A stretch of 64,000 nt of DNA from Candidatus Omnitrophota bacterium (GTDB lineage: Bacteria > Omnitrophota > Gorgyraeia > Zapsychrales > JANLHA01): contig JAHFFT010000001.1 in assembly GCA_023247795.1 (NCBI GenBank), positions 2,868 through 66,867 on the forward strand, written 5' to 3'. Shown here piece by piece: positions 2,449-37,982 of the stretch. The notes under the pieces are model-generated. The model searched no databases. It was not told the DNA's origin and was given only the letters and a program-made list of their open reading frames with translations. How positions within the stretch are numbered: the stretch's first letter is position 1; each line of letters begins with the position of its first letter. The position numbers were made by a program, and so were the translations under genes.

Positions 2449-2976
2449 TCAGCTGCTCAATAGCCTTTTATAAATTCGATAATCCTGGTCATCAAAACAA
2501 CAGAAAATAACTTTTTCAATTGCGGATACGCGGGAAAGGAACTCTTTAACGGTGGCGACTGCTATCTGACCTGCTTTTTCTTTTGGAAAAAGGTAAACTC
2601 CGGTGCTGATGCAGGGAAAGGCCATTGATCGAATCTTATTTTCTTCGGCAAGCAAGAGCGACCGCTGATAACATCTTCTTAAAAATTCTGCTTCGCGATG
2701 CTGCCCGCCCTTCCAAACAGGCCCAACGGTATGAATCACATATTTTGCAGATAAACGATACCCTTTCGTTATCTTCGCCTCTCCCGTCTGACATCCACCG
2801 AGTGTACGGCACTCTGCAAGAAGCTGGGGGCCGGCGGCCCGATGGATCGCCCCATCAACGCCTCCCCCGCCGAGCAGTGAAGTGTTTGCGGCATTGACAA
2901 TCGCGTCAACCGACAATCGGGTGATGTCTGCGCAGACAGCTTCGCTTTGATTCATCGACTCCATGATAACCGTCAT
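2449..2976 (-). CDS. ymdB: Macro domain protein (O-acetyl-ADP-ribose deacetylase, YmdB-like)
   Basis: [41 protein letters not shown] and [15 protein letters not shown] are canonical macro-domain motifs. The ORF-track start at 3009 is TTG. The first ATG is at 2976, so the start is uncertain. Confidence 0.85.
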
Positions 2977-3075
2977 TCCCAATGAAAAAAAATCCTCGGA
3001 ACCGGACAAAAACTCCCCTCCCAGACTCTTTATTAAACAGATTCAATTTATCCTTTATTTTCAGACGAGTAGGAA

Positions 3076-3870
3076 CTATATCATTCTCTTTCTTACCAGC
3101 TCCATGATTTGAATGATCGCTTCTTGGGCATTGTCATAGATCACCAAATCCGCATAAATGTCATAAGGAGTTGCCATCAGATTGATGATCAAAACTTTGG
3201 CCCCCCGCCGTTTGGCCTCGATCACCAAATAGGCGGCCGGCTGGACTAAAAGGGACGCCCCAATGACGATAAAAAGATCGCTTTGCATGGTAGCCTGCAG
3301 GGATCGCAGAGAAGACTCCAAAGGCATGGGTTGTCCAAAGGCAATGGTGTTTGATTTTAAAATACCCCCGCACAAATCACAATAAGGAACCTGGATTCCC
3401 CCTCCTTTAATCCGCTGATAGATATGATCTCGAGAGAACCGGGCATAACAATGCAAACAACTGACCGAAAATATACTGCCATGGATTTCGATCACTTTTT
3501 CTTCTGACGATTGCGCCCTTTGATGAAGGCGATCGACATTTTGGGTGATCACCGCCAACAATTTCCCTTTATGTTCTAATTCCGAATAGGCATAATGAAC
3601 CTCATTCGGTTGTACCCGCAGCACCAATTCATAAAATTGCTGTTCCATTTCCCAAAAGATCTTTCGTGACCTTTCACTGTCAATGAATTGCTGATAAAGA
3701 AAGTCCTTAGGATCATATTTGGTCCAATAACTGTGTCCGATCCCTCGAAAATCAGGTACACCCGAATCCGTGCATGCCCCCGCACCAGTAAAGCCGACGA
3801 TCTTCTGTGAACCTAAAATCAACGACGCGGCACGTTCAATTTTTTCCTTTTTCTTTCGCGTTGAAAACAT
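3076..3870 (-). CDS. cobB: NAD-dependent protein deacylase (sirtuin, CobB/Sir2 family)
   Basis: GAGACTDSGVPDFRG Rossmann/NAD motif, TQNVDRLH, catalytic IEIHGS, and a Zn ribbon CLHC...CDLCGG. The ATG shares one nt with the upstream stop (TGATG). Confidence 0.85.
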   Translation of the reverse strand: MFSTRKKKEKIERAASLILGSQKIVGFTGAGACTDSGVPDFRGIGHSYWTKYDPKDFLYQQFIDSERSRKIFWEMEQQFYELVLRVQPNEVHYAYSELEHKGKLLAVITQNVDRLHQRAQSSEEKVIEIHGSIFSVSCLHCYARFSRDHIYQRIKGGGIQVPYCDLCGGILKSNTIAFGQPMPLESSLRSLQATMQSDLFIVIGASLLVQPAAYLVIEAKRRGAKVLIINLMATPYDIYADLVIYDNAQEAIIQIMELVRKRMI

Positions 3871-4958
3871 CAGCCTTGTCCAATCAGTTTTTCAAGGTCT
3901 CGCCAATAATGATCAGCAAAAACTTCTCCGCGGTACCACTCCAGACCAAATTCCGGAGAATAGACCAATTCCATGGGAACGGCATAAAATCCATCTTTTC
4001 GCTTTAATCGATTCGACTTAACTAACCAAATGATAAAAATAGTCACGGCATTGAAAGGAATAACAAAAGTTGGGAAAGGAAGATAATGGATTCCCAGATA
4101 GGTCAGAAGAACAGCGCCGAGACACCCCAAGAAGGTCAAGACACAAACATGTTTGTTAATCACAATAAAAATCCCCCCCAAGGCCAAGACAGTGGGAATC
4201 GAATTATAAATGTACAATTCCAGCATTCCAAATTCGTGTACTCCCCCCAGGAAAAAAATCAATATGATATTGATCAAGGTTGCCACGCTGACCACGAAAA
4301 ATGATAGCGAGGAATGGTAAAAAACGGCAATCATAATAATGAAAAAAGCCATCATATGATTAGAAAAGGCTTGCAAGAATATTTTTATGGTCTCCCACGT
4401 CCATTGCTTATTGGATAACGTGATGATACTCGCATTGAAATTCCGAAAATATTCGATCATACGCTCATCGGGGCCGCGCCAACTGCTCGACGGAAAAAAA
4501 TGGTTTGAAAGACTGCTCAGCAACAATAGGAGAAGTAGCGAAGGAATACTAAAGACCGGGAGGTTGGCAATTGTTCGGGCATTGAAATCACTCATCGCCT
4601 TCATCATCACTGAAGAAAGCGCCGCCGCAAAAATGAAAAGCAGAAGCGAGATAAAATTCAAATTGAAAAACCAAGCCCAGGCCACCCCAAGGACAACACC
4701 ATTGAATCCGTAAACCCCCGAGTTGATATGAAAGGGCCGCACTTTCAGATGAATGGCTGTGGCCGTCGACGCCATAACCCCTAAGACCGTCAGAAACCAT
4801 ACCTCCCTCGAAATAACAAAAATGGCGACGGATAAAAGAAAACCGGTGAGTTGATTAGGGCAAATCAGGACTTGCCCATATCCCTTTAAAAGGACCTGTA
4901 AATGTGGAAGGAATTTATCACGGGGAAGAAATTCTCTCCATTCGGTAAGATAATCCAT
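3870..4958 (-). CDS. Urea-transporter (UT) family channel-like membrane protein with an extra C-terminal cytoplasmic tail
   Basis: First-half signature LLKGYGQVLICPNQLTGFLL...LGVMASTATAIHL...SGVYGFNGVVLGVA. Second-half signature LYIYNSIPTVLALGG. About 10 hydrophobic segments, then a ~60-aa hydrophilic tail. Confidence 0.65.
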   Translation of the reverse strand: MDYLTEWREFLPRDKFLPHLQVLLKGYGQVLICPNQLTGFLLSVAIFVISREVWFLTVLGVMASTATAIHLKVRPFHINSGVYGFNGVVLGVAWAWFFNLNFISLLLFIFAAALSSVMMKAMSDFNARTIANLPVFSIPSLLLLLLLSSLSNHFFPSSSWRGPDERMIEYFRNFNASIITLSNKQWTWETIKIFLQAFSNHMMAFFIIMIAVFYHSSLSFFVVSVATLINIILIFFLGGVHEFGMLELYIYNSIPTVLALGGIFIVINKHVCVLTFLGCLGAVLLTYLGIHYLPFPTFVIPFNAVTIFIIWLVKSNRLKRKDGFYAVPMELVYSPEFGLEWYRGEVFADHYWRDLEKLIGQG

Positions 4959-4970
4959 GCGTGGACGATT

Positions 4971-6371
4971 TCATTTTTGCAGTTTCAAACGGTCGGGTAA
5001 CACATCTAGACGACGAAAGTCGGACATGACTTCCGGCATTCGCAAATATTCCGCCTCACCATGATGAACAATGACAACCGCGGGACGCGCATAAATGAAC
5101 TGCATTGATTGGCTCATATTATAAGCGCCGACATTCTTAATGATAAGCTGACTGCCCTTCTGCAACTGTGGTAAGCGCACGCCTAAACGAATCACATCGA
5201 TTTGCATGCACAAGGGGCCATACACATTCACATTATCCAAATGGGGGCCCATGTCCTGGACAGTCATAAATTCATGTTTATACCAATAAGCCGTAACCAA
5301 AATATTAACACCCGCATCAATGATAATCGCCTTTGTTCCATCAGCGAATCGTTTGGTCGCCACAACCGTTGTTATCATCGACACTGCCTCATCTACCAGG
5401 GAACGTCCCGGCTCGAGGATCAAACGGGGTTTGCTCTTAAACTCCTGAACCCGATTGCGCAACGGATAACAGAGGGCTTCCGCATACTGCTCTAAGGTCG
5501 GAATGATCGCGGAACCGGTTAAAAACTGCGAATGGAGAGTATTGCAGGAGGCATAGCCTCCCCCCATATCAAGATACTCAATCTGCACGTCGAATTCCCG
5601 CTCCAATTTTAAAGCAAAATCAATCAACTTATTAACCGCCTGATAATACGCCCCGTGGTCAGAGATGTAAGTCCCGATATGACAATGTAAGCCGTTCAAC
5701 TGCAGACTTCCCGACGAGACAACCCGACGCGCTGCTTCAAAGGCCTGTCCGGCCTCGAGATTAAAACCAAACTTACTCCAAGCCGGATAAGTCACATCAA
5801 CATTGACCCGAATCCCTACCTTCGCGGGATCCTTCTTAGACGGCCAAAGATTTTCAATTTGCTGAATCTCATCAAAAGAATCAATATTTATGATCGACTT
5901 TCCTTTTATGGCTCGCATCAGATCGGCACTTGTTTTATGGACACCATTGAAAACAATTTTTGTCGATGGCATACCTAAGTCTTCGGCCATTTCATATTCC
6001 AAACCCGAAACGACTTCTGCCCAGGCCCCTTCTTGATGCAAAATCGTACAAATACCAGAAAGATAGTTGGTCTTGTAAGAATAGGCAATATAGGTATCGG
6101 AATAAATTTTGCGTAAATTCTTGATAAAATCCCGATATCGCTGCCGAAGATCTTTCTCCGAAACAACATACAAAGGAGAACCATATTTGGCAACGAGTGT
6201 GGAGACATCCACACCGTCGATCTGCTGACAGGGAGTCGCGCTTAATGTTCGACCACGATATTTGTTCGTTGCTGCCAGCGAATGAATCGTGATCAGCGGT
6301 TTTTCGTAGGTGCCTCGGCGAACGCCGGGCGTCACAGTTTGACTTTTGGAATCATGATTTCTATGAATCAT
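4971..6371 (-). CDS. Fold-type III PLP-dependent decarboxylase (Orn/DAP/Arg decarboxylase family)
   Basis: YSYKTN (PLP lysine), GLHCHIGT, DMGGGY, EPGRSLV and GPLCMQIDV are the family motifs, in the correct order. There is an 11-nt overlap with the upstream ATP-grasp gene. Confidence 0.85.
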   Translation of the reverse strand: MIHRNHDSKSQTVTPGVRRGTYEKPLITIHSLAATNKYRGRTLSATPCQQIDGVDVSTLVAKYGSPLYVVSEKDLRQRYRDFIKNLRKIYSDTYIAYSYKTNYLSGICTILHQEGAWAEVVSGLEYEMAEDLGMPSTKIVFNGVHKTSADLMRAIKGKSIINIDSFDEIQQIENLWPSKKDPAKVGIRVNVDVTYPAWSKFGFNLEAGQAFEAARRVVSSGSLQLNGLHCHIGTYISDHGAYYQAVNKLIDFALKLEREFDVQIEYLDMGGGYASCNTLHSQFLTGSAIIPTLEQYAEALCYPLRNRVQEFKSKPRLILEPGRSLVDEAVSMITTVVATKRFADGTKAIIIDAGVNILVTAYWYKHEFMTVQDMGPHLDNVNVYGPLCMQIDVIRLGVRLPQLQKGSQLIIKNVGAYNMSQSMQFIYARPAVVIVHHGEAEYLRMPEVMSDFRRLDVLPDRLKLQK

Positions 6372-7419
6372 GAAAGATGAGTTCCTTTGTTGTTGCTAAC
6401 TGACCTAAACGACTGATCTCACACGTCATATCCAGCGAACTTCTTGCAAATAAAATCCCTGGTTTGAAGGGCAATTCAAAATCACCTTTTTTCCCAGAGG
6501 CAATCATAATAGCCGCCTTGGGCATATTACAACCGGCCTTGGCAGCCAACTGAATCCAATTCGGAAAACGCGGCCGGATATCCGTCAAAACATATTGGTT
6601 CGTAGTATGGCTCTTCACAAATTCCAATTCGGCCGGGCCACACCATTGGATTTCTTTTAACACCTTCCTCGCCATATCATCCAAGATCTCATCTTGCGTG
6701 GTCATGCCAATCCACGTTGACCCGTTTCTCGATTTGACAATTTTTTTCATGCCGGCACAAGCAACAACCTGATGCCGACGATTTGTCAGAGCGGCGATGG
6801 AATACTCATCACCACTGATATACTGCTGTAAGACCAAGGGACTTCCCCAACTCTCAAAAAATCGGTTGCTAAAAACACCTGCTTCTTGCGTAGAATAAAC
6901 TAACTGCTGTTCGCCACTGGGACATTTAACGTAAAAAGGCGAATAGAAATTCAGTGCCAAACTGGCTAATTGAGCTTGATCCCACAAAGGCATCGTATAA
7001 GGAACACCGACTTCGATGTTAACGGCCCAATAAGGAATACTTTCGGTCCGTGCTTTTCTTAAACTCGCTTCGCTGGGAATGAGCATTTTTACACCAAGGT
7101 CCCGCAGATCCGGCTCGAGTTTGATCATCGATGGGATTTCAAATTCCAGATTCGGGATAAGAAAATTGTTCTTGGACGTATCAACAATTTCTTTCATCCG
7201 TGATAGGTAACGATCTTCCTCTTCCTGCGGATAAGGAACAACATAAACCGCATCCACAAGTTTATCCAAATAGGCAATGCTGTCCAATAATTCATATACC
7301 AGCGCAATGATTTTGACTTCGAAATCGGCTTCGTTGCGAAGACAGCGAATAACCCCTATTCCGGGAGCTGGATCGGCTCCGGCATTTAAGCCGGTGACAT
7401 AAATATGATACCGTGCCAT
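6361..7419 (-). CDS. ATP-grasp family ligase (paralogue 2)
   Basis: 352 aa. The N-terminal layout is shared with 7430..8518 (YVTGLNAGADPAPGIGVIRCL vs FTGVDSTENPYPGLSVLRAI). The C-terminal ELEFVKS...VLTDIRPRFPNW resembles the ATP-grasp E-x-N/D-x-R Mg/ATP site. Confidence 0.7.
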   Translation of the reverse strand: MARYHIYVTGLNAGADPAPGIGVIRCLRNEADFEVKIIALVYELLDSIAYLDKLVDAVYVVPYPQEEEDRYLSRMKEIVDTSKNNFLIPNLEFEIPSMIKLEPDLRDLGVKMLIPSEASLRKARTESIPYWAVNIEVGVPYTMPLWDQAQLASLALNFYSPFYVKCPSGEQQLVYSTQEAGVFSNRFFESWGSPLVLQQYISGDEYSIAALTNRRHQVVACAGMKKIVKSRNGSTWIGMTTQDEILDDMARKVLKEIQWCGPAELEFVKSHTTNQYVLTDIRPRFPNWIQLAAKAGCNMPKAAIMIASGKKGDFELPFKPGILFARSSLDMTCEISRLGQLATTKELIFHDS

Positions 7420-7429
7420 ATCGACGTTG

Positions 7430-8518
7430 TTATAAAGGTGTCTGTTCGTTACTCGATAACTGGATACTGCGCCAATTGAGCGATCCCTGAAGATTCAGTT
7501 GAACCAAATGATTAAAATCACAAAAGATGTCCTCAAAAACACGGCTGAACATAACACCCTTCTTATACTCCAGTTGCGGCTCTACGCGTTCGCCTAACGC
7601 CAGTTTGAGCGTGAGCAGCGGCAAATTCAAATTGCTTGACATCGTGGTGTATATCCAAGCGGGTAACCGGGCATTGATCTCAATGATAAATTTCTTATTG
7701 AAATACGGATTCTTGATGATTTCGAGTTCCATGGGGCCTTGCCATTGCAACGCCTTAACGACCTTGCTGGCCAATTCATGAAACTCTTCGCCATCAACGG
7801 TCACGCCGGCAAAAGCTTTACCAGAATTTGTGATCCCAATTTTTTTCATCACCACTTTGGCCACGATATCACTGTTCTGGTCGGCAACCAACGCGATATC
7901 ATATTCGTCTCCATCAACACATTCCTGAACAATGAGCGGCAATCCCCATTGATAGGAAAAACGATGAAAAAAAACCTGCGCCTCATCTCGGTAATAAACC
8001 TTCTGTGCGTCAATGATCGAGCCTTTGATCAATAATGGATAATGCAGCTCAACCGAATGTTGATCAATTTCCTGGGGATCGTTGATCACATAACTCTTCG
8101 GATGATCAAATTGATTTTTTTCACAAAATTCCCTTAAAAACGCTTTCGATCGGGCCTTAACTGCCGCTTCCGGCGGAACAAAAGTCTTGATCCCGATATT
8201 CCTCAATTTATCTGCCAAACGGGCATAGGTGGCAATCTCCGAATCTAAACACGGGATCAAAACATCGATTTTGGTTTGGCGATGGATATCCTCGATCCTG
8301 GGAAATAGATAATTCTCCGGTTCGGAAGGGAAGGGGATCTGATAAACTTCATCGATCAGATCATATTTGTAAAGACCGGTCGTTACGCTATCATAAGTAA
8401 AGACAATGATTTTTCCTAGAAACTCGCCGGATTCCTTAATGGCCCGCAGCACGCTCAAACCCGGATAAGGATTCTCCGTCGAGTCTACGCCGGTGAAGGC
8501 CACATTGCAGTCAATCAT
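7430..8518 (-). CDS. ATP-grasp family ligase (paralogue 1)
   Basis: 362 aa. YPLLIKGS, LIVQECVDGDEYDI and MELEIIKN...FIIEINARLPAW (an EINxR motif) are typical of the ATP-grasp fold. Confidence 0.75.
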   Translation of the reverse strand: MIDCNVAFTGVDSTENPYPGLSVLRAIKESGEFLGKIIVFTYDSVTTGLYKYDLIDEVYQIPFPSEPENYLFPRIEDIHRQTKIDVLIPCLDSEIATYARLADKLRNIGIKTFVPPEAAVKARSKAFLREFCEKNQFDHPKSYVINDPQEIDQHSVELHYPLLIKGSIIDAQKVYYRDEAQVFFHRFSYQWGLPLIVQECVDGDEYDIALVADQNSDIVAKVVMKKIGITNSGKAFAGVTVDGEEFHELASKVVKALQWQGPMELEIIKNPYFNKKFIIEINARLPAWIYTTMSSNLNLPLLTLKLALGERVEPQLEYKKGVMFSRVFEDIFCDFNHLVQLNLQGSLNWRSIQLSSNEQTPL

Positions 8519-8889
8519 TGCTTAATTCCAATTTCTAACTCGCGCAGTTGATAAAGCAGATCATGGATATCGGAAACTAAAATTCCTTCACTGACCTCAT
8601 ATTCTTGAGTGAGTTGTTTTGCTAAGTCCTCCAGCGAAAGCCCCTCTTTGATCCTGGCGATAATAAAAGAAGCGGTCGTATTTAAAGCATAGACCCGGCC
8701 TGATTTAGCGTCAAATAAAAACCCATGACCATCTTCCGAGATTTCCGTACTCACGTGCTCCGGGATCGAAATCACATAATTTCCTAAATCCTTAAATTGG
8801 CAATCCTTCTTATTATTTCGATTGCGGAAACGTTCCAGGATTTGATCGATATCCTCGATCTTTCCTTTCCTTTTGATATACAATTTCAT
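8515..8889 (-). CDS. PqqD-like (RRE-type winged-helix) small protein
   Basis: 124 aa. GFLFDAKSGRVYALNTTASFIIARIKEGLSLEDLAKQLTQEYEVS matches the PqqD-family pattern. There is a 4-nt overlap with the downstream ATP-grasp gene. Confidence 0.6.
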   Translation of the reverse strand: MKLYIKRKGKIEDIDQILERFRNRNNKKDCQFKDLGNYVISIPEHVSTEISEDGHGFLFDAKSGRVYALNTTASFIIARIKEGLSLEDLAKQLTQEYEVSEGILVSDIHDLLYQLRELEIGIKQ

Positions 8890-8895
8890 CGTACC

Positions 8896-11400
8896 TTATG
8901 CCCCTCTATTCAATTCCCCCAAACCGTTTAAGGCTCCCAAATGTCCTGGAACAATTTCCAAGGCTTTCATAAATCTTTGCTTTGCCGCACTTTTATCGCC
9001 CTTCTTCAAATCACACCAACCCAACGCGGTATAAGGATCGGCATAAATATCCTGCTCTTTATGCAGCTCGAGAAGTTGATTAAAATATCCGGCTGCCTTA
9101 TCATAATTTTTAGTGTAAAAGTAACTCCAGCCTAAATTATTCAATACCACACTCCATTTCAACCATCCGTCTTCCTTCTCCGGTTTCTTCGATAAGAGCG
9201 GTTCCAGTCGATCAATCGCCCCCTTATAATCACCCTGGATAAAATAGATCGCTCCTAAACCTAAAGAAGCGCTTTCCGAGGTTGGCTCCTTCGCTAATAC
9301 TTTTGCAAATGATTCGGAAGCCTTCTTATAAATGCCCTGATAATAATAACTCCATCCTAACCGGCTATAAAGATCAAACCAGCCCTTTTCTGCGGCAAGG
9401 ATCTTTTGAAAATCCTCCGTCATTACATAATCCGGATAAATGTCGATGGCTTTCGCAAAGGCTTCTTTAGCAGGATCCAAGTTTTTAACTTGATACTGAC
9501 TTAACCCCAAACCATAATAAGGATCGACCCAATAGGGGTTGATATCAATGGCCATTTGAAAGCTTTCCGCGGCCTTAGCGTAATCTTTGATCTTATAAGA
9601 ACTCCAAGCTAAAGCGGTCAAGGCGGAATAATTTTTTGGGCTTTCTGCCACGGCTTTCTCTAAATATTCTTTAGCGCCGACATAATCTTTCCTTTGAAAT
9701 AAAATATTGCCTAAACCACTCAGGGCATCGAGATTTTTAGGATATTCCGCCAATAATTCTCGGAATTCTTTCTCCGCACTATCCTCTTCCCCTAAACGAT
9801 AGTAACACCAACCGATCCCTCCCCGCATGGCCAAGGCCTTATCTTGCGGAATATTTTTACCAGCATTTTGCAGGTCATATTTAAATTGCTTCAAGGCCGA
9901 AAAATAATCTCCTTGATAATAATAACTCCAGCCCAAATCGGTCCGCCCATATTTGGCTTGATCAACGGCCAGCAAACCATTTAAGGCATCCGCATAGCTT
10001 GGATTGAGAGCGAGCACGGCTTTAAATTCTGATTCCGCATCATCAACCTTTTTCAACATATAATACGACCATGCCAATCCATCATGCGGATCAATCCAAT
10101 TAGGCTGATTCGTAACCGCCTTTTTAAACTCTTGTGCTGCTTCACTGTATTGTCCCAGTTTATAATCCGCCCACGCCAGGCTTGACTGGGCATCGCTTTG
10201 CACTAAATAGCTGGCAATGGTCCCGGGGATTTGGACATATTCGCTCACCGCCGGTAAAGTCGGATTCTCCTTTAACGATTGCTTAAAATATTTTGCAGCA
10301 TCTTCAAATTGACCCAATTTATAAGCGGCATAACCCAAACCCCTTAAGGTTTCGCCATTCTTTCCTAAAACTTTAGAAGCCTCATCAAATTCTTGGGCCG
10401 CGAGTTGAAAATACCCTTGTTGATAATAACTCCATCCAACCACATTATAGAGATCTTGCCAATCCGTCTGAATTTTGAGAACATTCTTAAATTGTTCATC
10501 GGCGACAAAAGGATAAATGTTGATGGCCGTCGTAAAATACTCCTTTGCCTTCGGGAAATCCTTCAAATCAAAATACGTCCAGGCCAAACCTTTATAAGGT
10601 TCAACCAAATAGGGGTTCAATTGTCGGGCCTTCTCAAACTCTGCTTTTGCCCTCTCAAAATCAGATTTGCGATTATAAATCCACCCGATCTTGCTTTGCA
10701 CATCCGGTTGATAAGCTTGAACATCAAGCGCTTTCTGCAAAAAAACCAAGGCCTGATCAAAATCATTCATCTCAAAATACGAAAAACCTATTCCTTTGAT
10801 GGCATCAAAACTATCCTTTTGCAGACTCAACACTTGCTCAAAATTATGAATGGCTTCCTGGTATTGCTTGTTGAAATGATACGACCATGCCAATCCAGTG
10901 TGAACCCTCCACAATTCTATATTCGGTAAACGTCCACTGGTATCAGCAACAATGGCTTCAAAGATAGTAATCGCCTTGCTATAATTCCCGGCATAATAAT
11001 ATTGCCAAGCACGATTAAAAGGGCGATAACGCCAAGCACTCACTTCTGCCATCCCGTTCAGGGAACCGGGGAAATATGGATAAATTTGTAGACATTTTTT
11101 AAAATTCTCTTCCGCAGTAACAAATTCGCCTTTTTGTAAATAATTCCATCCTAACCCATCATAGGGATCACACCAATCCGTGTGCTCCTGAACTTCTTTC
11201 TGAAATACCCCAATCGCTTGATCATATTGTTTATCATAATAAAGATCCCAAGCCTCTTGGGAAACGGTGGGCTCTTCCTTTTTATTGTTTTCCTCAGCCA
11301 CGGCCTTTTGAACATTGATGAAAACATTGATCAAAACAAAGATCGTCACAACGACAAAACATAACATCGTTTTACAGCTCATTAATTTTTTTAAACGCAT
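8896..11400 (-). CDS. Large TPR-repeat protein with N-terminal signal/anchor
   Basis: 834 aa. Hydrophobic N-terminus MLCFVVVTIFVLINVFINVQKAVA, followed by about 20 repeats of the W/G-WxY...A...F.KAL...P TPR pattern. Confidence 0.8.
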   Translation of the reverse strand: MRLKKLMSCKTMLCFVVVTIFVLINVFINVQKAVAEENNKKEEPTVSQEAWDLYYDKQYDQAIGVFQKEVQEHTDWCDPYDGLGWNYLQKGEFVTAEENFKKCLQIYPYFPGSLNGMAEVSAWRYRPFNRAWQYYYAGNYSKAITIFEAIVADTSGRLPNIELWRVHTGLAWSYHFNKQYQEAIHNFEQVLSLQKDSFDAIKGIGFSYFEMNDFDQALVFLQKALDVQAYQPDVQSKIGWIYNRKSDFERAKAEFEKARQLNPYLVEPYKGLAWTYFDLKDFPKAKEYFTTAINIYPFVADEQFKNVLKIQTDWQDLYNVVGWSYYQQGYFQLAAQEFDEASKVLGKNGETLRGLGYAAYKLGQFEDAAKYFKQSLKENPTLPAVSEYVQIPGTIASYLVQSDAQSSLAWADYKLGQYSEAAQEFKKAVTNQPNWIDPHDGLAWSYYMLKKVDDAESEFKAVLALNPSYADALNGLLAVDQAKYGRTDLGWSYYYQGDYFSALKQFKYDLQNAGKNIPQDKALAMRGGIGWCYYRLGEEDSAEKEFRELLAEYPKNLDALSGLGNILFQRKDYVGAKEYLEKAVAESPKNYSALTALAWSSYKIKDYAKAAESFQMAIDINPYWVDPYYGLGLSQYQVKNLDPAKEAFAKAIDIYPDYVMTEDFQKILAAEKGWFDLYSRLGWSYYYQGIYKKASESFAKVLAKEPTSESASLGLGAIYFIQGDYKGAIDRLEPLLSKKPEKEDGWLKWSVVLNNLGWSYFYTKNYDKAAGYFNQLLELHKEQDIYADPYTALGWCDLKKGDKSAAKQRFMKALEIVPGHLGALNGLGELNRGA

Positions 11401-11489
11401 ACTCTCCTCCTATGTTAATCTAAATCTGTTAAATAACTGCTCAAAATAGTTATCCTTGACAACAATGATCGTACGGGAAGTTTTTGTTC

Positions 11490-12611
11490 TTATAAAGAAT
11501 TGGTCTTTTGATCGACTTGCTCAAGTCCGGTGAGAGAACTCTTATACGAAGGAGTAAGAGCTAAGGCTTTATTGAACATCACTCGAGCAGCTTTCATACG
11601 TCTACGACTCGTTTTATTTTTTCCTTTGGCGGTCTTATCATTATCCCAGTAAAGATACGACCAACCGATCTTATCGTAAATTTCAGCATTTCTTTCATAC
11701 TTCAAAGCCTGTTTATAAATCCCTATGGCTTCTTGATATCGCTTTAAAGAAAACAAGCAATCTGCCCATTTGATTCGGGCGTCATTCCATTGCGGCTTCA
11801 GCCGAGTGGCCATTCGAAACTCTTTTAAGGCCTTTCCAAAATCCTGACGGCTAAAATTAAGATAACCTAATGCCCGATGAGCTTCCGGCTCAGTTTTAAC
11901 ATGCACGCCCCTTTGATATCGCATCCCTTTAACTAAGGCCCGCTGGAGATATTTTTCGGCAATCTCAACTTCTCCCTTTCGAAAATAACACCAACCCAGA
12001 CCTGCATAGGCATCAGAAGAATTAGAATCTATACTCAACGCTTGTTCAAAATAGTTAATGGCTTGGGCCCAATCTGATTTTTTAAAATTTGCCCAACCTC
12101 TCCCGGTATAAGCATCAACGACCTTAGGATCCACTAAAACCAAATCGCCAAACGTTTTGCTGGCACTCTCATAATCACCTTTACCAAAATAGGCCCACCC
12201 TAGCAAAGTCAAGGCCTCTGAACTCAAGGGATTCTGTCTCACTGCTTTCTCAAAATATTCAATGGCTTTCTCGTGATTGTTAACCGATAAATAATACGAC
12301 CCTTCTGAGGCATAACCTTTGCCTCGACGATCTCCGGTGGAAGTAAAAATGGGTTCTTCTCCTACATTAACAACGGTCATCGCCATTTCAACGGGCTTTG
12401 TTCCTATTTCATAAAGTGACTTAAAAAGTTCCGGTACCTGCTTGACATTCGTCATAGACTTCGCAACATCAACCGGTAGCTTCGCGATTCCCACAACCTC
12501 CTCTTTGACCAGTTTCGGCACTTTTTTAACGGTGGCAGCACAGCCGGTCATCATTCCTCCAGCCAGCAGCAGGGTGATGAATTGCAAACATGGGTATGAG
12601 GAAATTTTCAT
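11490..12611 (-). CDS. TPR-repeat lipoprotein
   Basis: Lipobox-like LLLAGGMMTGC at the N-terminus. Multiple TPR units (GWAYFGKGDYESA, GWANFKKSDWAQA, GWCYFRKGEVEIA). Confidence 0.75.
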   Translation of the reverse strand: MKISSYPCLQFITLLLAGGMMTGCAATVKKVPKLVKEEVVGIAKLPVDVAKSMTNVKQVPELFKSLYEIGTKPVEMAMTVVNVGEEPIFTSTGDRRGKGYASEGSYYLSVNNHEKAIEYFEKAVRQNPLSSEALTLLGWAYFGKGDYESASKTFGDLVLVDPKVVDAYTGRGWANFKKSDWAQAINYFEQALSIDSNSSDAYAGLGWCYFRKGEVEIAEKYLQRALVKGMRYQRGVHVKTEPEAHRALGYLNFSRQDFGKALKEFRMATRLKPQWNDARIKWADCLFSLKRYQEAIGIYKQALKYERNAEIYDKIGWSYLYWDNDKTAKGKNKTSRRRMKAARVMFNKALALTPSYKSSLTGLEQVDQKTNSL

Positions 12612-12628
12612 CGTAAGCCGTTCCTTCT

Positions 12629-14227
12629 TTAAAACTCGATATCCAAACCAAATTCCACTTGATAGGCGCCATCGGCCTCGCCATCCCGTCGAGGAGTAGG
12701 CGCGAATATGTTATTGGCGGCAGTATCGGCGCGGGTTTCCTTATAATAATCTCCCGGGAAAAAATATCCTGACAAAATACTAAACTTTATGGCTTTGGTG
12801 ATTTGATAACTAGCAAAGACATCCAATTCCTGGCCCAAGTCTTTTGAAAAAGTTTTTAAATTCCCATTGCCATCCAGACCCCATCCCGGTTCTTTTGAAC
12901 GCAAATACCAATAATCCACGCCGATATACCATTTTTCAAGTGGGGTATAATCAAATCCAACGGTCGAAGCAATCAAATTTTCAAACATGAAAGGGTCACC
13001 AAAGGTCCCGGGACGAGCGACGCCAAAATTGACCGCGTATCCGCCTGCCATTGCCACATAAGGACCAAACTGTTTCTGATAATGCGTATCGGTTAAATTG
13101 GTGTTTAATGGGGAAAAAACACTGAAGGCCTCATTTTCATTACTGGTGAGGGTAAGTTCATTATAATTCTGCGCGTTGAATCGGTTACCGGAGGCCATAA
13201 AAAATTTCGTCTTCGGTTTGAACGCCCCCAAATCATAACTGGCATCCGCAACCAAAAGATAACCTTTATGTTCGATATCATTTTGTGCCGTGTTGATGGC
13301 CTTCGCCTTTCCCAAATTTTGGTCCCCTTCAAACCCAAGATTCAGACGGTCAAAATTCAGTTTTAAATAAGCCCCTGGTGTCACAAGATCTTCGTTTTTC
13401 ACACGGGTGCTGAATCGACTTGCACGCGCACCTTCTGGTGTTCGATCCCTCAGCCAGCCGGTATAAAGTTGTAACCGTTGTTTACCCAATTTGAATGTCG
13501 TATCCGCCGTATAAAAGTAAGCATTGGTGTCATTCCAATCATTGACCTTCTCATGATCAATGACTTTTCCTAAATGAATACGATTATTCAGATCTTCTTT
13601 TTCCCAGTGGACATTCCAATCGAGTGATTCATTAACTCCAGAAAGGGTTAGCCCATAATTTTCATATTTTCCACCCAAGGCAATGTTATGACCAAGATCG
13701 CGTCCGTAAGGATACAGACCAAATTTGAAATTGACATCTTTCGTTGAATTCACCGGAACTTCCAGCCAGGTTTCTCTTAATCGAGGATATAAATCTGAGT
13801 TTTGGTACCAATGATACCGTCCAAATAAAGAGTTGATGCCACGGCTCCCATAAAGCGGGGCATCATAATCGGCGCGCCCCCTTCTTTCTACAAAAGAATA
13901 AAACTCAAGGCCGGAAAGATGGCGGAGATCAAAAGTAAAGTCATAAGCTAACCCAAGATAACTGGTCTTATCATTGTTATTCGCTAAATCAAGATCAACC
14001 GTATTGTTCACTAAATTATAAGACGTACGCAGGTGCGCTCCGGAATGAAATTTCCAATTTGATTCATCCAATAAAAAAGGATGTTTCTCAACATCCAAAT
14101 CTTTAACGTCTTTAAAATAACTCTGAGCATATATAGAGGAAGGCAGGGCAAATAAGGAAAGGAAAATAAAAATATTGACGAAAGGCTGAAGGAAAACTTT
14201 TTTACTTTTTTTGTTTTTACAAGTCAT
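12629..14227 (-). CDS. Outer-membrane beta-barrel protein (porin/exporter-like)
   Basis: The ORF-track start at 14269 is TTG. ATG 14227 gives MTCKNKKSKKVFLQPFVNIFIFLSLFALPSSIYA (signal peptide). Alternating amphipathic strands run throughout, and the C-terminus is FGLDIEF (aromatic terminal residue typical of OMPs). Confidence 0.65.
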   Translation of the reverse strand: MTCKNKKSKKVFLQPFVNIFIFLSLFALPSSIYAQSYFKDVKDLDVEKHPFLLDESNWKFHSGAHLRTSYNLVNNTVDLDLANNNDKTSYLGLAYDFTFDLRHLSGLEFYSFVERRGRADYDAPLYGSRGINSLFGRYHWYQNSDLYPRLRETWLEVPVNSTKDVNFKFGLYPYGRDLGHNIALGGKYENYGLTLSGVNESLDWNVHWEKEDLNNRIHLGKVIDHEKVNDWNDTNAYFYTADTTFKLGKQRLQLYTGWLRDRTPEGARASRFSTRVKNEDLVTPGAYLKLNFDRLNLGFEGDQNLGKAKAINTAQNDIEHKGYLLVADASYDLGAFKPKTKFFMASGNRFNAQNYNELTLTSNENEAFSVFSPLNTNLTDTHYQKQFGPYVAMAGGYAVNFGVARPGTFGDPFMFENLIASTVGFDYTPLEKWYIGVDYWYLRSKEPGWGLDGNGNLKTFSKDLGQELDVFASYQITKAIKFSILSGYFFPGDYYKETRADTAANNIFAPTPRRDGEADGAYQVEFGLDIEF

Positions 14228-14407
14228 TCTCAAAGATTGTTGAGATTCAAATTTTATAACATCTCGCAAACATTTTTTATCCTAAGCATTTTTCGTTTCA
14301 ATTGCAAGTTTTTTTTAAATTTTTTGTGGGACAGGCCAAAAATCCCGGGTATCAGGGATAAAAGATGTTGCTGGTAAAAGTCGTAAATCCTTTTTCTCGT
14401 CGAATGT

Positions 14408-14437
14408 ATTATAAAAATTTTTACTCTCACATAGCAA
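14408..14437 (-). promoter_or_regulatory. Candidate sigma70-type promoter for the OMP/TPR operon
   Basis: The minus strand reads TTGCTA - 18 nt - TATAAT. The -35 element lies inside the palindrome CATAGCAAA-CGGA-TTTGCTATG (14430..14451). Confidence 0.3.
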
Positions 14438-14677: not shown

Positions 14678-15778
14678 TTAATTGGGTCGCGGACCATCAC
14701 TGCCAAGGCCGCCCGGCTGACCACCAACATGATTGGCGTTATTCAGACCCGCGCCGCCCAGACCAGGTCTTTGCGTACCCTGACTTGATAATACCCCAGG
14801 CTTCGGCATGACAGGACCGACAGGCCGATTGCCATTTAACTCTTGATGGCCGGCTCCTTGCCCTTCCATTTGGGGAGATTGGTCGGACTGCATATTCCGC
14901 ATTTGACCTTGTTCTTCTTGACTATGCTCTTGCATCGCTCCCTTCGGTGCTTCATGTTGTACTTTTATCCCTCGCATTTTCTCATACTCGCTTTTCATTT
15001 GTTCTCGACGATCTTGCTGCTCTTCATGAGACGCTTGCATTTTCTCTTGATGCTGCTCTTTCATTTCCTGCAGCTGTTCATGCTCAGCATCCATCTGCTC
15101 TCGATACTCCTGTTGCTCTTCACGAACCGCTTGCATTTTCTCTTGATGCTGCTCTTTCATTTCCTGCAGCTGTTCATGTTGCGCCTTCATTTCTTCTCGC
15201 TGTTGCTGAAATTGTTCTTTATAAGCCTCTGCGCGTTCCGAATTAGCTAACGGCGGTTTTTGGTTAGGCCCGCTTATCAGTGGTCTATTCATTTCGCCCA
15301 TTGAAGCATTGGGACGAGAACCTTCTTGCTGATCACCCATAGGGCCATTATCACGTTGCCCCATCTGATCAGGTTGATTCATTGGTTGCTGCGAACCTTG
15401 ACGGTCATTATCTGTTCGTGGACCAACCTGAGAATTGCCTTGTTCACCTTGCTGCGCACCCGATTGCGGACGATTTTGTTCTCCACCCATACGATTGCCC
15501 TGAGATCCACCCTGGCCTTGCATTCCCGATCCGTTGGGCCGATCGTTATTCATACCAGGATCTCCTCTTTGGCCTCCTGGACCGCCAGAACCACCAGGTC
15601 CACCTGCTCCGCCTTGACCACCTTGATGTCCAGCGTTCATACCCTGTCCCGGACCGCCATGTCCACCTGGACCTCCAGCTCCCGGACCACCACCCGGCCG
15701 CGGCCCTTGCTGGGCGAAAACCACACCCGAAAGCGCTAAGCAAAAAATTCCAATCAAAGCCATGATTCTCATTTTCAT
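14678..15778 (-). CDS. Secreted low-complexity G/P/Q/E/M/H-rich protein
   Basis: Signal peptide MKMRIMALIGIFCLALSGVVFAQQ. A good SD (AAGGAAAGG) precedes the ATG. Composition-biased throughout, with the internal repeat EQLQEMKEQHQEKMQA. Confidence 0.75.
   Translation of the reverse strand: MKMRIMALIGIFCLALSGVVFAQQGPRPGGGPGAGGPGGHGGPGQGMNAGHQGGQGGAGGPGGSGGPGGQRGDPGMNNDRPNGSGMQGQGGSQGNRMGGEQNRPQSGAQQGEQGNSQVGPRTDNDRQGSQQPMNQPDQMGQRDNGPMGDQQEGSRPNASMGEMNRPLISGPNQKPPLANSERAEAYKEQFQQQREEMKAQHEQLQEMKEQHQEKMQAVREEQQEYREQMDAEHEQLQEMKEQHQEKMQASHEEQQDRREQMKSEYEKMRGIKVQHEAPKGAMQEHSQEEQGQMRNMQSDQSPQMEGQGAGHQELNGNRPVGPVMPKPGVLSSQGTQRPGLGGAGLNNANHVGGQPGGLGSDGPRPN
15032..15178. repeat. Intragenic direct repeat (51 bp identical, 96-bp period)
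   Basis: 15032..15082 and 15128..15178 both read CGCTTGCATTTTCTCTTGATGCTGCTCTTTCATTTCCTGCAGCTGTTCATG. Confidence 0.9.
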
Positions 15779-16018: not shown

Positions 16019-19000
16019 CTAAAATTCTTGTAAAGACTTAACTCTTTTTGTTTCTTGATGATAGCTCAATTGCTCTTCGTTCGGTGGAACCGTTTTCCCG
16101 ATCAGAGCTGGTAAATTGGTCACAGGCTTGATCTCCATGATGATCGGCAGAAAGCCATCAAATTGTAAATTTTTAATCTGCTCCGGATCAAAATCAAACT
16201 TGATTGCTGGCCCTTCATTTTGAATCATCAGCTCCAAATTTTCCGGATTCAAGTCGATACCACCAACCTCCGATGAAGCATTTTGCGGAGCAATGGTAAT
16301 CGCCGACACCTGTGGATTATTTGTATTACCTAGAAAAAAGGAATCCTTCATCCCCGGAGCTAATACCAAATTTTGGTCTAATAAATCAAGATCATTGCTG
16401 TCTCCGTTTTCTTTCTTAACTTGATTTTTAGCAATGTCCCAGACCCCGCCAAACCCAAAATCGAAAGCCTTGCCAGCCCACCCAGGGTATCGAGCAAAAT
16501 CAATCTGAACAGCATTATCTTCTGCCATAACCGGCTTTCCAGTCTCTGGATCTCTGACCATCACTTTTCCCGTGGGATCAAAATAAAGTCCTAAATCCAA
16601 ATGCCAATTGACAATTTCTTGCGCGGTCTGCCGACTTTCACCGTTTGTTACCGCAAATGCCTTGGATTCAATCAACTGATTGATTTGGGCGGAAGCACTT
16701 TCTGACAAATCATGAGCGCTTTCAGAACGAGGCTTGGCATACCAAGATCTTTGAATCTCACCGGTTTCCGGGTCAAAGAGGGCCATGACCGCCTCCTGCC
16801 TTTTCCATTTGTATTGACCGGTAACGGTCGAATAAGTATCACTGCTGTAATAAAGTTCCATCCGATTATCACGCGAAGCCAAAACATAAATACGGTCGTG
16901 CATAAAAAACGCTTGATGGAACAGAAACAAATTGGGTTTACCTTCGGTTGTATTTTGACGGTTCTGCCTGACATATCTGGCAAATGCCTCTTTTGTGGGA
17001 GCATCCTTCGCGTTGATCACCTTGAATGAGTAATCCCCGCTGTTCACTTCGCCGATGACGCGATCTTCATCCCTGCGCCATTGAGCTTTTTTGTTTTTCT
17101 TGATCAGAAGTCTCTTGACCCGCCCCAATTCAACCGCCTTGGAAAATTTATAGCTCCGATATTTGTAGATCAATTCCGAAATGACGTATTTGAGATCCAC
17201 CACCTTCTCTGCCTTCTCAAATTGATAAACCAAAACGAGGTAATGCGTGATCAAAGCAAGAATATCGGCCTGATCACCCTCAGTTTTTACACCGAGTTCT
17301 TTGTCAACATCACGGATAAAATCCTGATCAATATACTCAGCCAGTTTTAGAATCCCATCTTTATCTTTCCCTAAAAAATATTTTTTCATCTCATCATTAA
17401 CTTCGATCGCCATTATTGTGTTCAACCGTTCTATTCTCCTTTCAAGCTTTAGTATTTCCTCTTGACCAAAATTTTCCTTTAACTGTAATTTTAGTAGCAC
17501 TAATTCATGCCTTCGTTCCGCGTTAGTCATTAATATGCTGCGGACTGGCACTTGAGTAAATTTGTGATACCCATTCGCCGTTAGGACCGGTGCTAAACGA
17601 TTCGCCTGAGCAAAAAAGTCAGCCCGATCTGACGGGTTTGTTGTAAGAACGATATCCAAGGCCAAAGCAATGAGATTGAGAATATTCCGGTAGCGGTCTG
17701 GATCAGATTGAAAAATCTTAGCCAAAGGAAAATCGACATCTAACTTGAAACGATTTCTTTCTTTTTCATCATTTTGGACAACAATCTTTAAAACGTTGCC
17801 GGGGCTGCGCTTTTTTATCGTTTTCTTGATTCGATCTCGATCGATATCCGCTTTCGTGATCTCATTGATCGCCATGGTTCCTTCTGTTCCAGCGGTCCCC
17901 TCGATTTCATCCTCGAATGCTTCAGGAACAGGTACGAGAGGGATATCCGACTTGGATTCTTTATGGCCTTCGACAATGGCAGCAATCGTTTGCTGTTGAA
18001 AATCTGTGAGATCTTCATCAACACCTGGTTTCGGTGTTCGAACAGGAAACCCTTTGCCAATCTCGGCCAAGACGGGTTTCAATTCACTCCATTCCTTAAT
18101 AGGCAATTTAGTAAATCGAGAACTTTCTCTCAATAAAACCAACCGCGAATAAATCCTGCCGACATGGCTTTCTGGTTCCAGTTCATCCAGTTCATGCAGA
18201 TCGATGGCTTCCAGCAACTCCGCGATATCATCCCTCGTTGCCTCAATCCTTTCCAAGTCACTCGCCACCGTCTGGCGAAAATACTCCATGACAACCTCTG
18301 ACGATTCCAAAATTTTTTTCATAGCGAACATCGCTTCTTCATCATCCATTTGATCACGGACCGAATTCATCCCTCTCGCGAAATAGCGAGTACATACCTC
18401 TGGTTCTCTTTCAAATTTCCCCAAAATCTTCGCAATCAACCCCTCACGTAATGCTGCTGCTAATTTTTGCACGTTCACACTGAATTTATTTTCCCTTCGA
18501 ATCATATCAAATGTTATAAGCTGACTGGCCGTAAGCTCTTGCTGACCTTTCCCACGTAAAATCTTGACCGCTTGCGGCAATTGCTTTTGTTGCGTTAGAA
18601 TGACGGCTAAAATCAATCGCTTTTGATCATCGGTCAATTGCGCGCTTTCTTTGATTCGCTTTTTTTCATCCAAATAATCCTGATTGGCATCAGCGACCAG
18701 GAACTTAACCGCGCGTTGCAAATATTCTGGCATTGCCTTGAGCATTTTATTATTTTGTAAAACATATCTTTGGTTTCCAGAATCGGGATCAAAAATTCTT
18801 CCGCAGCGCGTTGCGATGATTTTAAAAGGATACGAATCCCCGACCGAATCGTTATGAGTGGGTTCAAAATCAATCTTGCCCTCATCATCAATTCGACCTT
18901 CCAGCATCGTGGGCGTATACTCACTATGCATCGCCTCGGTTATCAAAACCTTTTCAACGGATTGATGGAACCGGCTTCTTTGATTTATCGCCAAGCTTTG

Positions 19001-26459: not shown

Positions 26460-26505
26460 TTTCTATACCATCCCCGTTAAAATAAGCTTTCCTAAAAATC
26501 CAAAC

Positions 26506-29633: not shown

Positions 29634-29640
29634 GTTCCTT

Positions 29641-31517: not shown

Positions 31518-31518
31518 T

Positions 31519-32613: not shown

Positions 32614-32626
32614 AAAAAGGATTAAC

Positions 32627-35034: not shown

Positions 35035-35075
35035 GTTCGCCCCTTTGTTGCTGTTTGACGCCGCTTGTTATAACG

Positions 35076-36452: not shown

Positions 36453-36486
36453 CTTTACCCCACCCCCGAAAACAAACTTTTGCAAG

Positions 36487-37977: not shown

Positions 37978-37982
37978 AGACT

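Follow-up and report, generated by a model that had tools for sequence, protein, structure and literature searches.

What can a bacterium make with a PqqD-like protein, ATP-grasp ligases, an amino acid decarboxylase and a channel of the urea transporter (UT) family, when no precursor peptide is encoded among them? This question is raised by five minus-strand genes in a 64,000-nucleotide (nt) stretch of the genome of a Candidatus Omnitrophota bacterium (GCA_023247795.1, contig JAHFFT010000001.1, positions 2,868-66,867, forward strand), which we refer to as the window. The initial annotation of this stretch had described a five-gene combination that it did not recognise. We likewise found no characterised pathway or curated NCBIfam model that matches it, none of the nine proteins of the complete unit reached an equivalog cut-off in an NCBIfam scan, and literature keyword searches retrieved no paper on this gene set. 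The analysis revealed that the genes belong to an operon that is real, widespread and so far uncharacterised. We propose that the five genes form the cytoplasmic and inner-membrane core of an envelope-spanning operon that would make and export a small amide-linked amine.

Open reading frame (ORF) calls and Pfam searches delimited a unit of nine genes, all on the minus strand (window 3076-14269), in the order AlgE-like outer-membrane barrel, tetratricopeptide repeat (TPR) lipoprotein, periplasmic TPR protein, PqqD, ATP-grasp A, ATP-grasp B, decarboxylase, UT-like channel and Sir2. The limits originally given to the cassette, 3870..8889, were thus too narrow, since the Sir2 gene, the two TPR genes and the barrel gene are co-conserved as well. 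Inside these limits the description was accurate in coordinates, sizes and domains. The five genes are separated by overlaps or gaps of at most 12 nt: PqqD and ATP-grasp A overlap by 4 nt, ATP-grasp B and the decarboxylase by 11 nt, whereas the two ATP-grasp genes are 10 nt apart and the decarboxylase and UT genes 12 nt. Searches of each protein against Pfam profiles agreed with every family assignment. At the two ends of this core, the Sir2 gene is joined to the UT gene by a shared TGATG stop/start, and the stop of the large TPR gene lies 7 nt ahead of the PqqD start.

Relatives of ATP-grasp A were sought in one genome per species and were found in at least 597 species genomes, a count that represents a lower bound. 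The carriers include Bacteroidota, Ignavibacteriota, Cloacimonadota, Marinimicrobia, Lentisphaeria, Planctomycetota, Myxococcota and Nitrospinota, metagenome-assembled genomes (MAGs) labelled Methylococcales and Riflebacteria, and the cultured Hymenobacter gummosus KCTC 52166. ORFs were called and clustered in 82 loci. The recurrent operon contains a PqqD protein of ~83 aa (64/82 loci), an ATP-grasp enzyme (78/82), the decarboxylase (74/82), a ~733-aa UT::M23 fusion that combines a full UT domain with an M23 peptidase domain (68/82), a ~444-aa TPR and beta-barrel protein (31/82, other barrel families standing in elsewhere) and a ~208-aa TPR protein (56/82). Its members are mostly joined by -4 or -13 nt overlaps, the PqqD stop overlaps the ATP-grasp start in most loci, and the order of ATP-grasp followed by decarboxylase held in essentially all of the 80 loci from other species. 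The dominant form consists of PqqD, a single ATP-grasp, the decarboxylase, the UT::M23 fusion, the TPR-barrel protein and the TPR protein. The variant in the window is rarer: its UT protein lacks M23, which is replaced by a sirtuin, and a second ATP-grasp is present. All nine genes recur in identical order, with unrelated flanks, in three Omnitrophota-like contigs (L029, L091 and L092), in which ATP-grasp A is 57-66% identical to that of the window; rearranged versions are present in two MAGs, one deltaproteobacterial (L002, L021) and one planctomycete (L009). The neighbourhood survey, which had been set beforehand as the test of the cassette, therefore showed a gene set that is co-conserved across phyla. 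This arrangement is far beyond chance, and we consider it almost certain that the operon is a genuine conserved functional unit.

An indication of the chemistry comes from the 466-aa pyridoxal phosphate-dependent decarboxylase of the alanine-racemase fold (window 4971..6371, minus strand; Pfam Orn_Arg_deC_N, 1.4e-37, and Orn_DAP_Arg_deC, 7e-12, each exceeding its cut-off). It had been assigned to fold-type III with all family motifs, and K100, H231, G270-272, E320, R323 and C388 are indeed invariant in 75 sequences. Among proteins of known structure its best match was FigC (7kh2, 2.3e-66), followed by diaminopimelate (DAP) decarboxylase (DAPDC; 3.4e-47) and BtrK (about 3e-23), whereas the scores remained below the cut-offs of both the LysA model (TIGR01048, 246.3 versus 297.9) and the FslC model (NF041039, 258.4 versus 500). 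FigC/FslC is an N-citrylornithine decarboxylase, its substrate is thus an N5-acylated ornithine, and H357 and R387 have been proposed as its citrate ligands (PMC7857480). The window enzyme shares with FigC the Cys-Met loop (CMQID, CMQHD in FigC) and the lack of acidic or Arg specificity residues (PMC7857480), so that the residues by which DAPDC and ODC recognise charge are gone, and it has a T..WY specificity helix. The distal-carboxylate Arg of DAPDC (R343 in M. jannaschii) is replaced by Thr360 and the motif C-E-S by C-M-Q, and the two FigC citrate ligands correspond to Ile391 (H357) and Gln421 (R387), both of which are invariant in the family. These specificity positions are invariant in the 75 family members, which cover both operon variants. 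Because DAPDC R343 and the citrate ligands are replaced across the family, the protein is neither LysA nor FslC, and its active-site residues indicate an enzyme of the kind whose amino acid substrate has been acylated on the side chain beforehand, with an acyl group that would be neutral or at least not citrate. The earlier proposal of ATP-grasp ligation followed by decarboxylation therefore remains the best reading, with FigC/FslC as closest solved relative and BtrK as a further match.

The PqqD-like protein (124 aa, window 8515..8889, minus strand; PF05402, 2.5e-12) had been compared to RiPP recognition elements (RREs), the domains found in clusters for peptides that are made by ribosomes and modified after translation (RiPPs), and this comparison was borne out. 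In an AlphaFold2 model, the RRE fold spans residues 46-117, with strands 46-50, 56-60 and 65-69 and helices 71-81, 86-96 and 101-117, and the best Foldseek matches were lasso B1 RREs, headed in the PDB by the leader-peptide-bound proteins 5v1u and 6jx3 (TM 0.87-0.89). The best NCBIfam match was the lasso PqqD chaperone NF033530, although below its cut-off (46.1 versus 70). The predicted structure thus suggests that the protein is probably a lasso-B1-type RRE. RREs of lasso systems bind a YxxP motif, and the broader RRE group binds W/Y/L-x-x-P/L/I (PMC12710340). A motif of this kind is present on the decarboxylase, which has an N-terminal extension of ~35 residues that is missing from FigC and DAPDC; alignments with these two begin only at query residue 50-51. 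The extension carries a tag (residues ~19-40, R..YEKPLI.....NKYRG, window 6252..6317, minus strand) in which the motif reads YEKPLI. Over 75 orthologues, the aromatic residue, the Pro three positions later and a hydrophobic residue at Pro+2 were each found in 75/75 sequences, and G..NK[FY]G comes next. Of the decarboxylase N termini, 72/75 contained the pattern [YFW]xxPx[ILVM], versus 11/459 control windows from the same proteins. Because of this near-invariant YxxPxI tag, the RRE probably docks on the decarboxylase itself.

No alternative ligand was detected in the form of a small conserved gene. As the initial annotation had pointed out, there is no space for a classical RiPP precursor gene inside 3870-8889, and none is conserved around the 82 loci, so that this is not a textbook RiPP locus. 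When intergenic ORFs of 18-99 aa on both strands of these loci were clustered by short-query BLAST, only PqqD and its frame shadows recurred, and the gaps between ATP-grasp and decarboxylase genes contained no conserved small ORF. A precursor peptide in or near the cassette was consequently rejected as a candidate. A profile search for the PqqD family returned no fused architectures, only stand-alone proteins of ~80-130 aa, some of them named 'HPr-rel-A system PqqD' by PGAP. We also rejected the earlier suggestion that PqqD itself serves as a small scaffold or carrier, because neither its C termini nor its N-terminal extension is conserved: the latter (~45 aa) occurs only in the Omnitrophota/Delta type, is missing from L009 and contains no invariant Lys, Asp or Glu that could serve as attachment site.

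Two paralogous ATP-grasp enzymes of ~355 aa had been described. The sizes and the paralogy stand, with 362 aa for ATP-grasp A (window 7430..8518, minus strand; PF15632 ATPgrasp_Ter, 4.6e-08), 352 aa for ATP-grasp B (window 6361..7419, minus strand; PF15632, 3.8e-08) and ~30% mutual identity, but the two are not equivalent at the active site. ATP-grasp A contains all family-invariant catalytic residues and the motif EINARLPAW. In structural comparisons its neighbours included the L-amino-acid ligases BL00235 (26.4), BacD (24.3) and RizA (22.6), PylC (24.5), and PurD, PurT and PurK, whereas LysX and RimK reached ~19 and graspetide macrocyclases 13-15. Its fold is thus closest to L-amino-acid ligases and PylC, not to RiPP macrocyclases. 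PylC makes N-epsilon-acyl-lysine. The corresponding motif of ATP-grasp B is TDIRPRFPNW, in which the E-x-N metal site reads D-I-R; the alignment showed D-L-K in L002 and R-C-I in L009, while E-I-N is retained in L029. ATP-grasp B is confined to the Sir2-type variant. Because it deviates at the invariant Asn of the Mg site, the two ligases may be one ligase and a degenerate partner, and the substitutions are compatible with a protein that is non-catalytic in some lineages. Carbamoyl-phosphate or urea chemistry, to which the 'CPS-like' names and the UT partner had pointed, was considered and rejected, since the matches to carbamoyl-phosphate synthase (CPS) and biotin carboxylase reflect generic ATP-grasp similarity and genes for a biotin carrier or urease are absent.

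The 362-aa UT-like protein (window 3870..4958, minus strand; PF03253, 2.2e-32) was confirmed as a UT-family channel with an additional tail. The Pfam match covers model positions 2-290 of 292 (112.9 bits), and matches to dvUT, UT-A and UT-B in the PDB indicate, at the sequence level, a full UT fold with its two five-helix repeats, in which both signature motifs are recognisable. In contrast to urea transporters, the score for urea_trans_yut (TIGR03441) was only 90.5 versus a cut-off of 274.6, and the pore is altered. The pores of dvUT, UT-B and UT-A2 have the same two threonines midway, which are invariant from dvUT to mammals (PMC4357013); the corresponding residues in the window protein are Ser137 and Val299. 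Of 69 operon-linked UT proteins, 65 had Ser at the first position and 62 had Ser, Ala or Val at the second, which suggests a UT fold with a changed filter. A further difference from urea transporters is what follows the last UT helix, namely, a cytoplasmic tail or a fused amidase. The tail (residues 314-362, window 3873..4019, minus strand) begins with KSNRLKRK, is strongly basic and contains an S-P-E motif just past the helix, of which P335 and E336 are invariant in 69/69 proteins. Urease genes were never found beside the UT-like gene in the loci examined. The presence of this channel had been regarded as unusual, yet a UT-domain protein is the rule for the operon and is mostly fused to an M23 peptidase.

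The UT protein is accompanied by one of two hydrolase modules. In the window, this is the 264-aa sirtuin (3076..3870, minus strand), which is translationally coupled to the UT gene. It matched the SIR2 family (PF02146) over its full length at 1.1e-39, and the motifs GAG..G.PDFR, QNVD.LH and HG as well as the Zn cysteines are seen in its sequence, whereas its scores were below the cut-offs of the CobB models (217.5 versus 320 and 215.4 versus 243). A Sir2 gene also follows the UT gene in L002, L009, L021, L029 and L091. In other lineages, an M23 or a Sir2 domain follows the same UT linker. The metal and catalytic histidines of M23 are conserved in the UT::M23 fusions, an architecture that had previously been catalogued only as an odd domain combination (PMC12998343). 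Two 541-aa proteins from JGI metagenomes 3300043331 and 3300056388 (P0116 and P0117) consist of an N-terminal UT and a C-terminal Sir2 domain, and the gene for one of the two immediately follows that of a fold-type III decarboxylase. We know of no description of the UT::Sir2 architecture. The existence of both types of fusion marks M23 and Sir2 as alternative amidase modules on the C-terminal side of the UT domain. Since a sirtuin needs NAD and the tail is basic, this end, and with it the M23 domain, should face the cytoplasm.

The remaining three genes point to the periplasm and outer membrane. The 546-aa barrel protein (window 12629..14269, minus strand) has a signal peptide and the C terminus ...GLDIEF, and its match to Pfam Alginate_exp was marginal (27.7 bits versus a cut-off of 25.2). 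Orthologues with Alginate_exp matches occupy the same position in L091 and L092, the match of the latter being unmarked, and occur also in L002 and L019. The 373-aa lipoprotein (window 11490..12611, minus strand) has a lipobox-like ...MTGC and matches to multiple TPR families in Pfam; in L029, L091, L092 and L019 its gene retains this place, with the barrel gene on one side and the large TPR gene on the other. The large periplasmic TPR protein (834 aa, window 8896..11400, minus strand) carries a signal peptide and TPR_2 repeats (1.3e-99), and its orthologue is located directly upstream of PqqD in L029 (53% identity) and L019 (34%). A TPR lipoprotein, a periplasmic TPR protein and a barrel that scores as Alginate_exp resemble the AlgK/AlgE, PgaA and BcsC systems, and TPR and barrel are fused in the ~444-aa protein of other lineages. 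Unlike those systems, the inner-membrane partner is UT-fold and a glycosyltransferase synthase is missing: no such membrane polymer synthase is present in the operon or among the conserved families of the 82 loci.

We propose the following mechanism, to which we assign, as a whole, a probability of about 35%. What the analysis shows is gene content, co-conservation, the fusions, the assignment of folds and families, and the conservation of motifs; all chemical steps, the contact of RRE and tag, the direction in which the product would be transported and its identity are inferred from these. ATP-grasp A, with its fold of the L-amino-acid-ligase/PylC type, would join a carboxylate to the side-chain group of an amino acid and leave the alpha-amino and alpha-carboxyl groups free. 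The amino acid would most likely be of the ornithine, lysine or DAP type and be linked through its distal amine. The FigC-like decarboxylase would then strip off the alpha-carboxylate to give an N-acyl diamine. The PqqD RRE, without a separate precursor, would hold the decarboxylase by its YxxPxI tag and thereby tether it to the ligase, and ATP-grasp B would be a divergent, possibly non-catalytic partner. An amide-hydrolase module on the cytoplasmic face of the UT channel (Sir2 here, a fused M23 in most loci) would carry out a final trimming, deprotection or release step that is tied to exit. The product would leave the inner membrane through the modified UT pore and cross the periplasm and outer membrane via the TPR proteins and the AlgE-like barrel, the whole forming a membrane-docked assembly. 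We favour this mechanism because the nearest solved relative of the decarboxylase acts on N5-acylated ornithine, because the ATP-grasp neighbours are small-molecule amino acid ligases and PylC, because amidases are fused to the cytoplasmic end of the channel, because no precursor ORF is conserved while the decarboxylase carries an RRE-like tag, and because the gene set is tightly coupled in more than 80 loci of many phyla and includes a barrel that scores as Alginate_exp.

Several observations weigh against this proposal. The pathway, including its substrate, is deduced here from genes, and what suggests contact between the RRE and the tag is the resemblance of motifs; to our knowledge, all characterised PqqD-type RREs bind separate precursor peptides. 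The canonical UT pore passes only urea-sized molecules, and replacement of the pore threonines points to a changed filter, not to a wider one. For a sirtuin that acts on a small N-acyl amine instead of a protein lysine, we know of no citable precedent, and the reaction would yield O-acyl-ADP-ribose, not the free acid. Finally, the mechanism offers no reason for a small molecule to depend on large TPR proteins and on a barrel of its own.

Every known system with which the operon was compared fails at least one defining feature. The initial annotation had named butirosin, LysW/LysX and siderophore synthesis independent of nonribosomal peptide synthetases (NIS) as analogues, none of which is a family match. 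Close in logic is Francisella rhizoferrin synthesis (FslA/FigA with FslC/FigC), where an amide is likewise formed on the side-chain amine of ornithine before a decarboxylase of the alanine-racemase fold generates an N-acyl diamine. In contrast to rhizoferrin and other NIS pathways, an IucA/IucC-type NIS synthetase is absent from the operon and from the conserved families of the 82 loci, so that the amide would be formed by the ATP-grasp. The window decarboxylase lacks the citrate-binding residues, and the window operon has the YxxPxI tag, PqqD, the UT channel and the TPR/barrel proteins, but neither a major facilitator superfamily exporter nor a siderophore receptor. The butirosin system BtrI/BtrJ/BtrK resembles the operon, in which both genes are adjacent, in pairing an ATP-grasp ligase with a fold-type III decarboxylase for a side-chain-tethered amino acid, yet no operon protein contained an acyl carrier protein or PP-binding domain in the Pfam and NCBIfam searches, BtrK matched far less well than FigC, and PqqD is not a carrier. 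The operon also lacks the LysW-type carrier and LysX-type ligase of the LysW/LysX system and the MdnB/MdnC-type ATP-grasp macrocyclase of microviridin-type graspetides. Exporters of the ATP-binding cassette (ABC) type with a C39 peptidase are similar in concept, as they too would place an amide hydrolase on the cytoplasmic face of a conduit and couple the last processing step to exit; however, the fold here is UT and not ABC, the hydrolase is M23 or a sirtuin and not C39, and an ATPase is absent.

Several genes in the vicinity of the operon were recorded. In the window, a candidate sigma-70-like promoter (14408..14437, minus strand; TTGCTA-18-TATAAT, 10/12 matches, identified by agreement with the consensus only) lies upstream of the barrel gene, where the intergenic region measures 408 nt. 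The next gene on the upstream side of the operon (window 14678-15778, minus strand) encodes a 366-aa protein with a signal peptide that consists nearly entirely of Gly/Gln/Pro/Asn-rich low-complexity sequence, carries a repeated EQLQEMKEQHQEKMQ coiled-coil block and has no Pfam match; it was not seen beside the operon in the other loci. Beyond it lie a 2,093-aa ORF (16019-22300, minus strand) without Pfam families at E <= 1e-4, a protein with a PMT_2-type glycosyltransferase domain and C-terminal TPR repeats (23102-24775, minus strand) and the division/cell-wall (dcw) cluster (25203-39668, minus strand), which includes FtsA (25203-26459), a 789-aa MurC::Ddl fusion (27264-29633) and an FtsI-type penicillin-binding protein (PBP; 37983-39668). 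On the other side, a Macro-domain protein (2449-3009, minus strand; Pfam 6.8e-49) is encoded 66 nt downstream of the sirtuin gene. It was rejected as a tenth member, as it adjoins Sir2 but is inverted in L029 and is absent in L091 and L002. In ~20 of the other loci, genes for a histidine kinase and for a LytTR response regulator lie upstream of the operon. In Bacteroidales (L054, L055, L065, L074, L075 and others), the operon comes directly after genes for PBP2 (mrdA), RodA and an AraC-like protein in 5-6 loci, these genes being placed between about -4 and -0.3 kb relative to the ATP-grasp gene. In the Prolixibacteraceae loci L023, L035, L057, L061 and L084, two secreted ~600-aa proteins that look zinc-carboxypeptidase-like by eye are encoded after the operon, ~+6.8 kb from the ATP-grasp gene.

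Of the other explanations, the one that retains most weight, though we consider it improbable, is a RiPP-like system whose precursor is encoded elsewhere. The RRE would bind a leader, the ATP-grasp would append a dibasic or acidic amino acid to the core, on a side chain or terminus, the decarboxylase would convert this into an amine appendage, M23 or Sir2 would remove the leader or edit the product, and the peptide would be secreted. The canonical RRE fold of PqqD, closest to lasso B1, is in accordance with this idea, as are the LytTR/histidine kinase pairs upstream in ~20 loci and the recurrence of a peptidase partner, mostly M23. An RRE, a peptidase and an ATP-dependent amide former mirror lasso B1/B2/C. 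The operon also has in common with lasso machinery a probable ligand of the YxxP type and a discrete RRE whose model superposes on B1. The differences are these: Pfam and NCBIfam scans of the nine proteins revealed neither a B2 transglutaminase-type protease nor an Asn-synthetase-type cyclase, the YxxP motif is located on a 466-aa enzyme, and the decarboxylase and the UT channel have no lasso counterpart. What reduces the likelihood of a precursor in trans is the lack of a conserved small ORF on either strand of the 82 loci, together with the implausibility of a UT-fold pore for peptide export and the presence of a YxxP-like RRE ligand inside the operon itself. A distant PqqD and ATP-grasp pair was found in two Thermoproteota archaeon contigs (L087, 7058-11918, and L088), flanked on one side by a CHAT protease of 815 aa and on the other by a hydrolase of the C45/AAT family, which are counted as a further instance of the peptidase partner, and followed after the ligase by a 35-aa ORF (MKYVKPIIRKYSVMFSFRPEDKIMEIRRKSGKALI). 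This archaeal locus may be a separate peptide-modifying system. It was rejected as a guide to the decarboxylase step, since the decarboxylase near L087 has neither the tag nor the CM loop.

The missing precursor gene would also be explained if, as in borosins, the precursor were fused to an enzyme. The N-terminal ~45 residues of the decarboxylase would then be leader and substrate at once: the RRE would bind them, the ATP-grasp modify them (for instance on the invariant Lys of NK[FY]G) and M23 cleave them off. A near-invariant YxxPxI and G..NK[FY]G followed by a variable linker ahead of the catalytic fold is what one would expect of such a protein, and M23 peptidases favour Gly-containing sites. 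However, every product would use up a 450-aa enzyme, an M23 peptidase is lacking in the window variant, no conserved stretch suited to act as core peptide comes after the tag, and the decarboxylase chemistry would be left without a role. We regard this arrangement as distinctly unlikely.

Comparably small is the chance of an operon that acts on peptidoglycan by modifying its stem peptides or muropeptides. The substrate would be the stem peptide, which is made non-ribosomally. The decarboxylase would act on the free D-centre of peptide-bound meso-DAP or on an appended lysine or ornithine, the ATP-grasp would be Ddl-like, and M23 would cleave the stem, a scheme that would account for the absence of a precursor gene. 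All three enzyme families have cell-wall relatives (Ddl, LysA and M23 endopeptidases), and the residues that the decarboxylase has lost are precisely those by which free DAP is held at its distal charged centre. Genomic context offers further hints, namely, the location of the cassette directly after mrdA-rodA in the 5-6 Bacteroidales loci, a distance of ~11 kb between operon and dcw cluster in the window, ftsA upstream of the operon in L091, and membrane acyltransferases of the Acyl_transf_3/HGSNAT type and M14 carboxypeptidase-like proteins in some loci. Such links are nevertheless restricted to a minority of loci and may be mere synteny. The M23 domain, if cytoplasmic, would be away from the sacculus, and the UT-fold channel and Sir2 would have no function in this scheme.

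A very unlikely explanation is that of a secreted linear polyamide, produced by iterative BtrJ/BtrK-like addition and decarboxylation (gamma-Glu to gamma-aminobutyrate), passed through the amide-friendly UT pore and the TPR/AlgE-like route in the manner of synthase-dependent exopolymers, and ended or released by M23 or Sir2. The similarity of the TPR lipoprotein and Alginate_exp-like barrel to AlgK/AlgE, PgaA and BcsC fits this idea, BtrK is a significant relative of the decarboxylase, and ATP-grasp enzymes such as RimK and cyanophycin synthetase can polymerise. However, there was no sign of processivity, the decarboxylase is far nearer to FigC than to BtrK, the Alginate_exp match in the window is marginal, and we know of no polymer that crosses a UT pore. 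Lastly, the notion of chance neighbours with housekeeping functions (a urea transporter, LysA, CPS-like proteins and CobB), which follows the public annotations 'urea transporter', 'carbamoyl-phosphate synthase large subunit' and 'NAD-dependent deacetylase', is effectively refuted by the conservation of order, orientation and start/stop overlaps across phyla between unrelated flanks, by the fusions that tie UT to M23 and Sir2, by equivalog scores far under the cut-offs (lysA, 246 versus 298; urea_trans_yut, 90 versus 275; CobB, 217 versus 320) and by the absence of DAP-binding residues and pore threonines.

Returning to the proposed amide ligation, decarboxylation and amidase-coupled export, the features that are new are the interchangeable UT-linked amidases and, as far as can be judged from residue conservation, the leader-like tag of the decarboxylase and the remodelled UT pore. 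Still more tentative than the mechanism itself is the view that they amount to a new envelope-spanning machine for biosynthesis and export, with an enzyme-docking RRE, a remodelled UT exit pore, an interchangeable M23/sirtuin amidase, a TPR/AlgE-like outer route and a product of a new N-acyl-diamine or short polyamide class. If the model holds, the 'urea transporter' homologues, which form a large family, would gain a role, as would the UT::M23 fusions. The PqqD protein and its tag would be the first RRE/leader-motif pair known, within the literature searched, to assemble enzymes and not to present a precursor. This would matter for RRE-based genome mining, where such loci now score as orphan RiPP clusters. 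The logic of decarboxylation after acylation, as known from FigC, would reach beyond siderophores. Cultured carriers, namely, Hymenobacter gummosus, Ignavibacterium album, Draconibacterium orientale and Tangfeifania diversioriginum, make the question testable. If the model holds, the operon would also specify a secreted metabolite that is common in sediment and groundwater members of the Bacteroidota, Ignavibacteriota, Cloacimonadota, Planctomycetota, Omnitrophota and Myxococcota.

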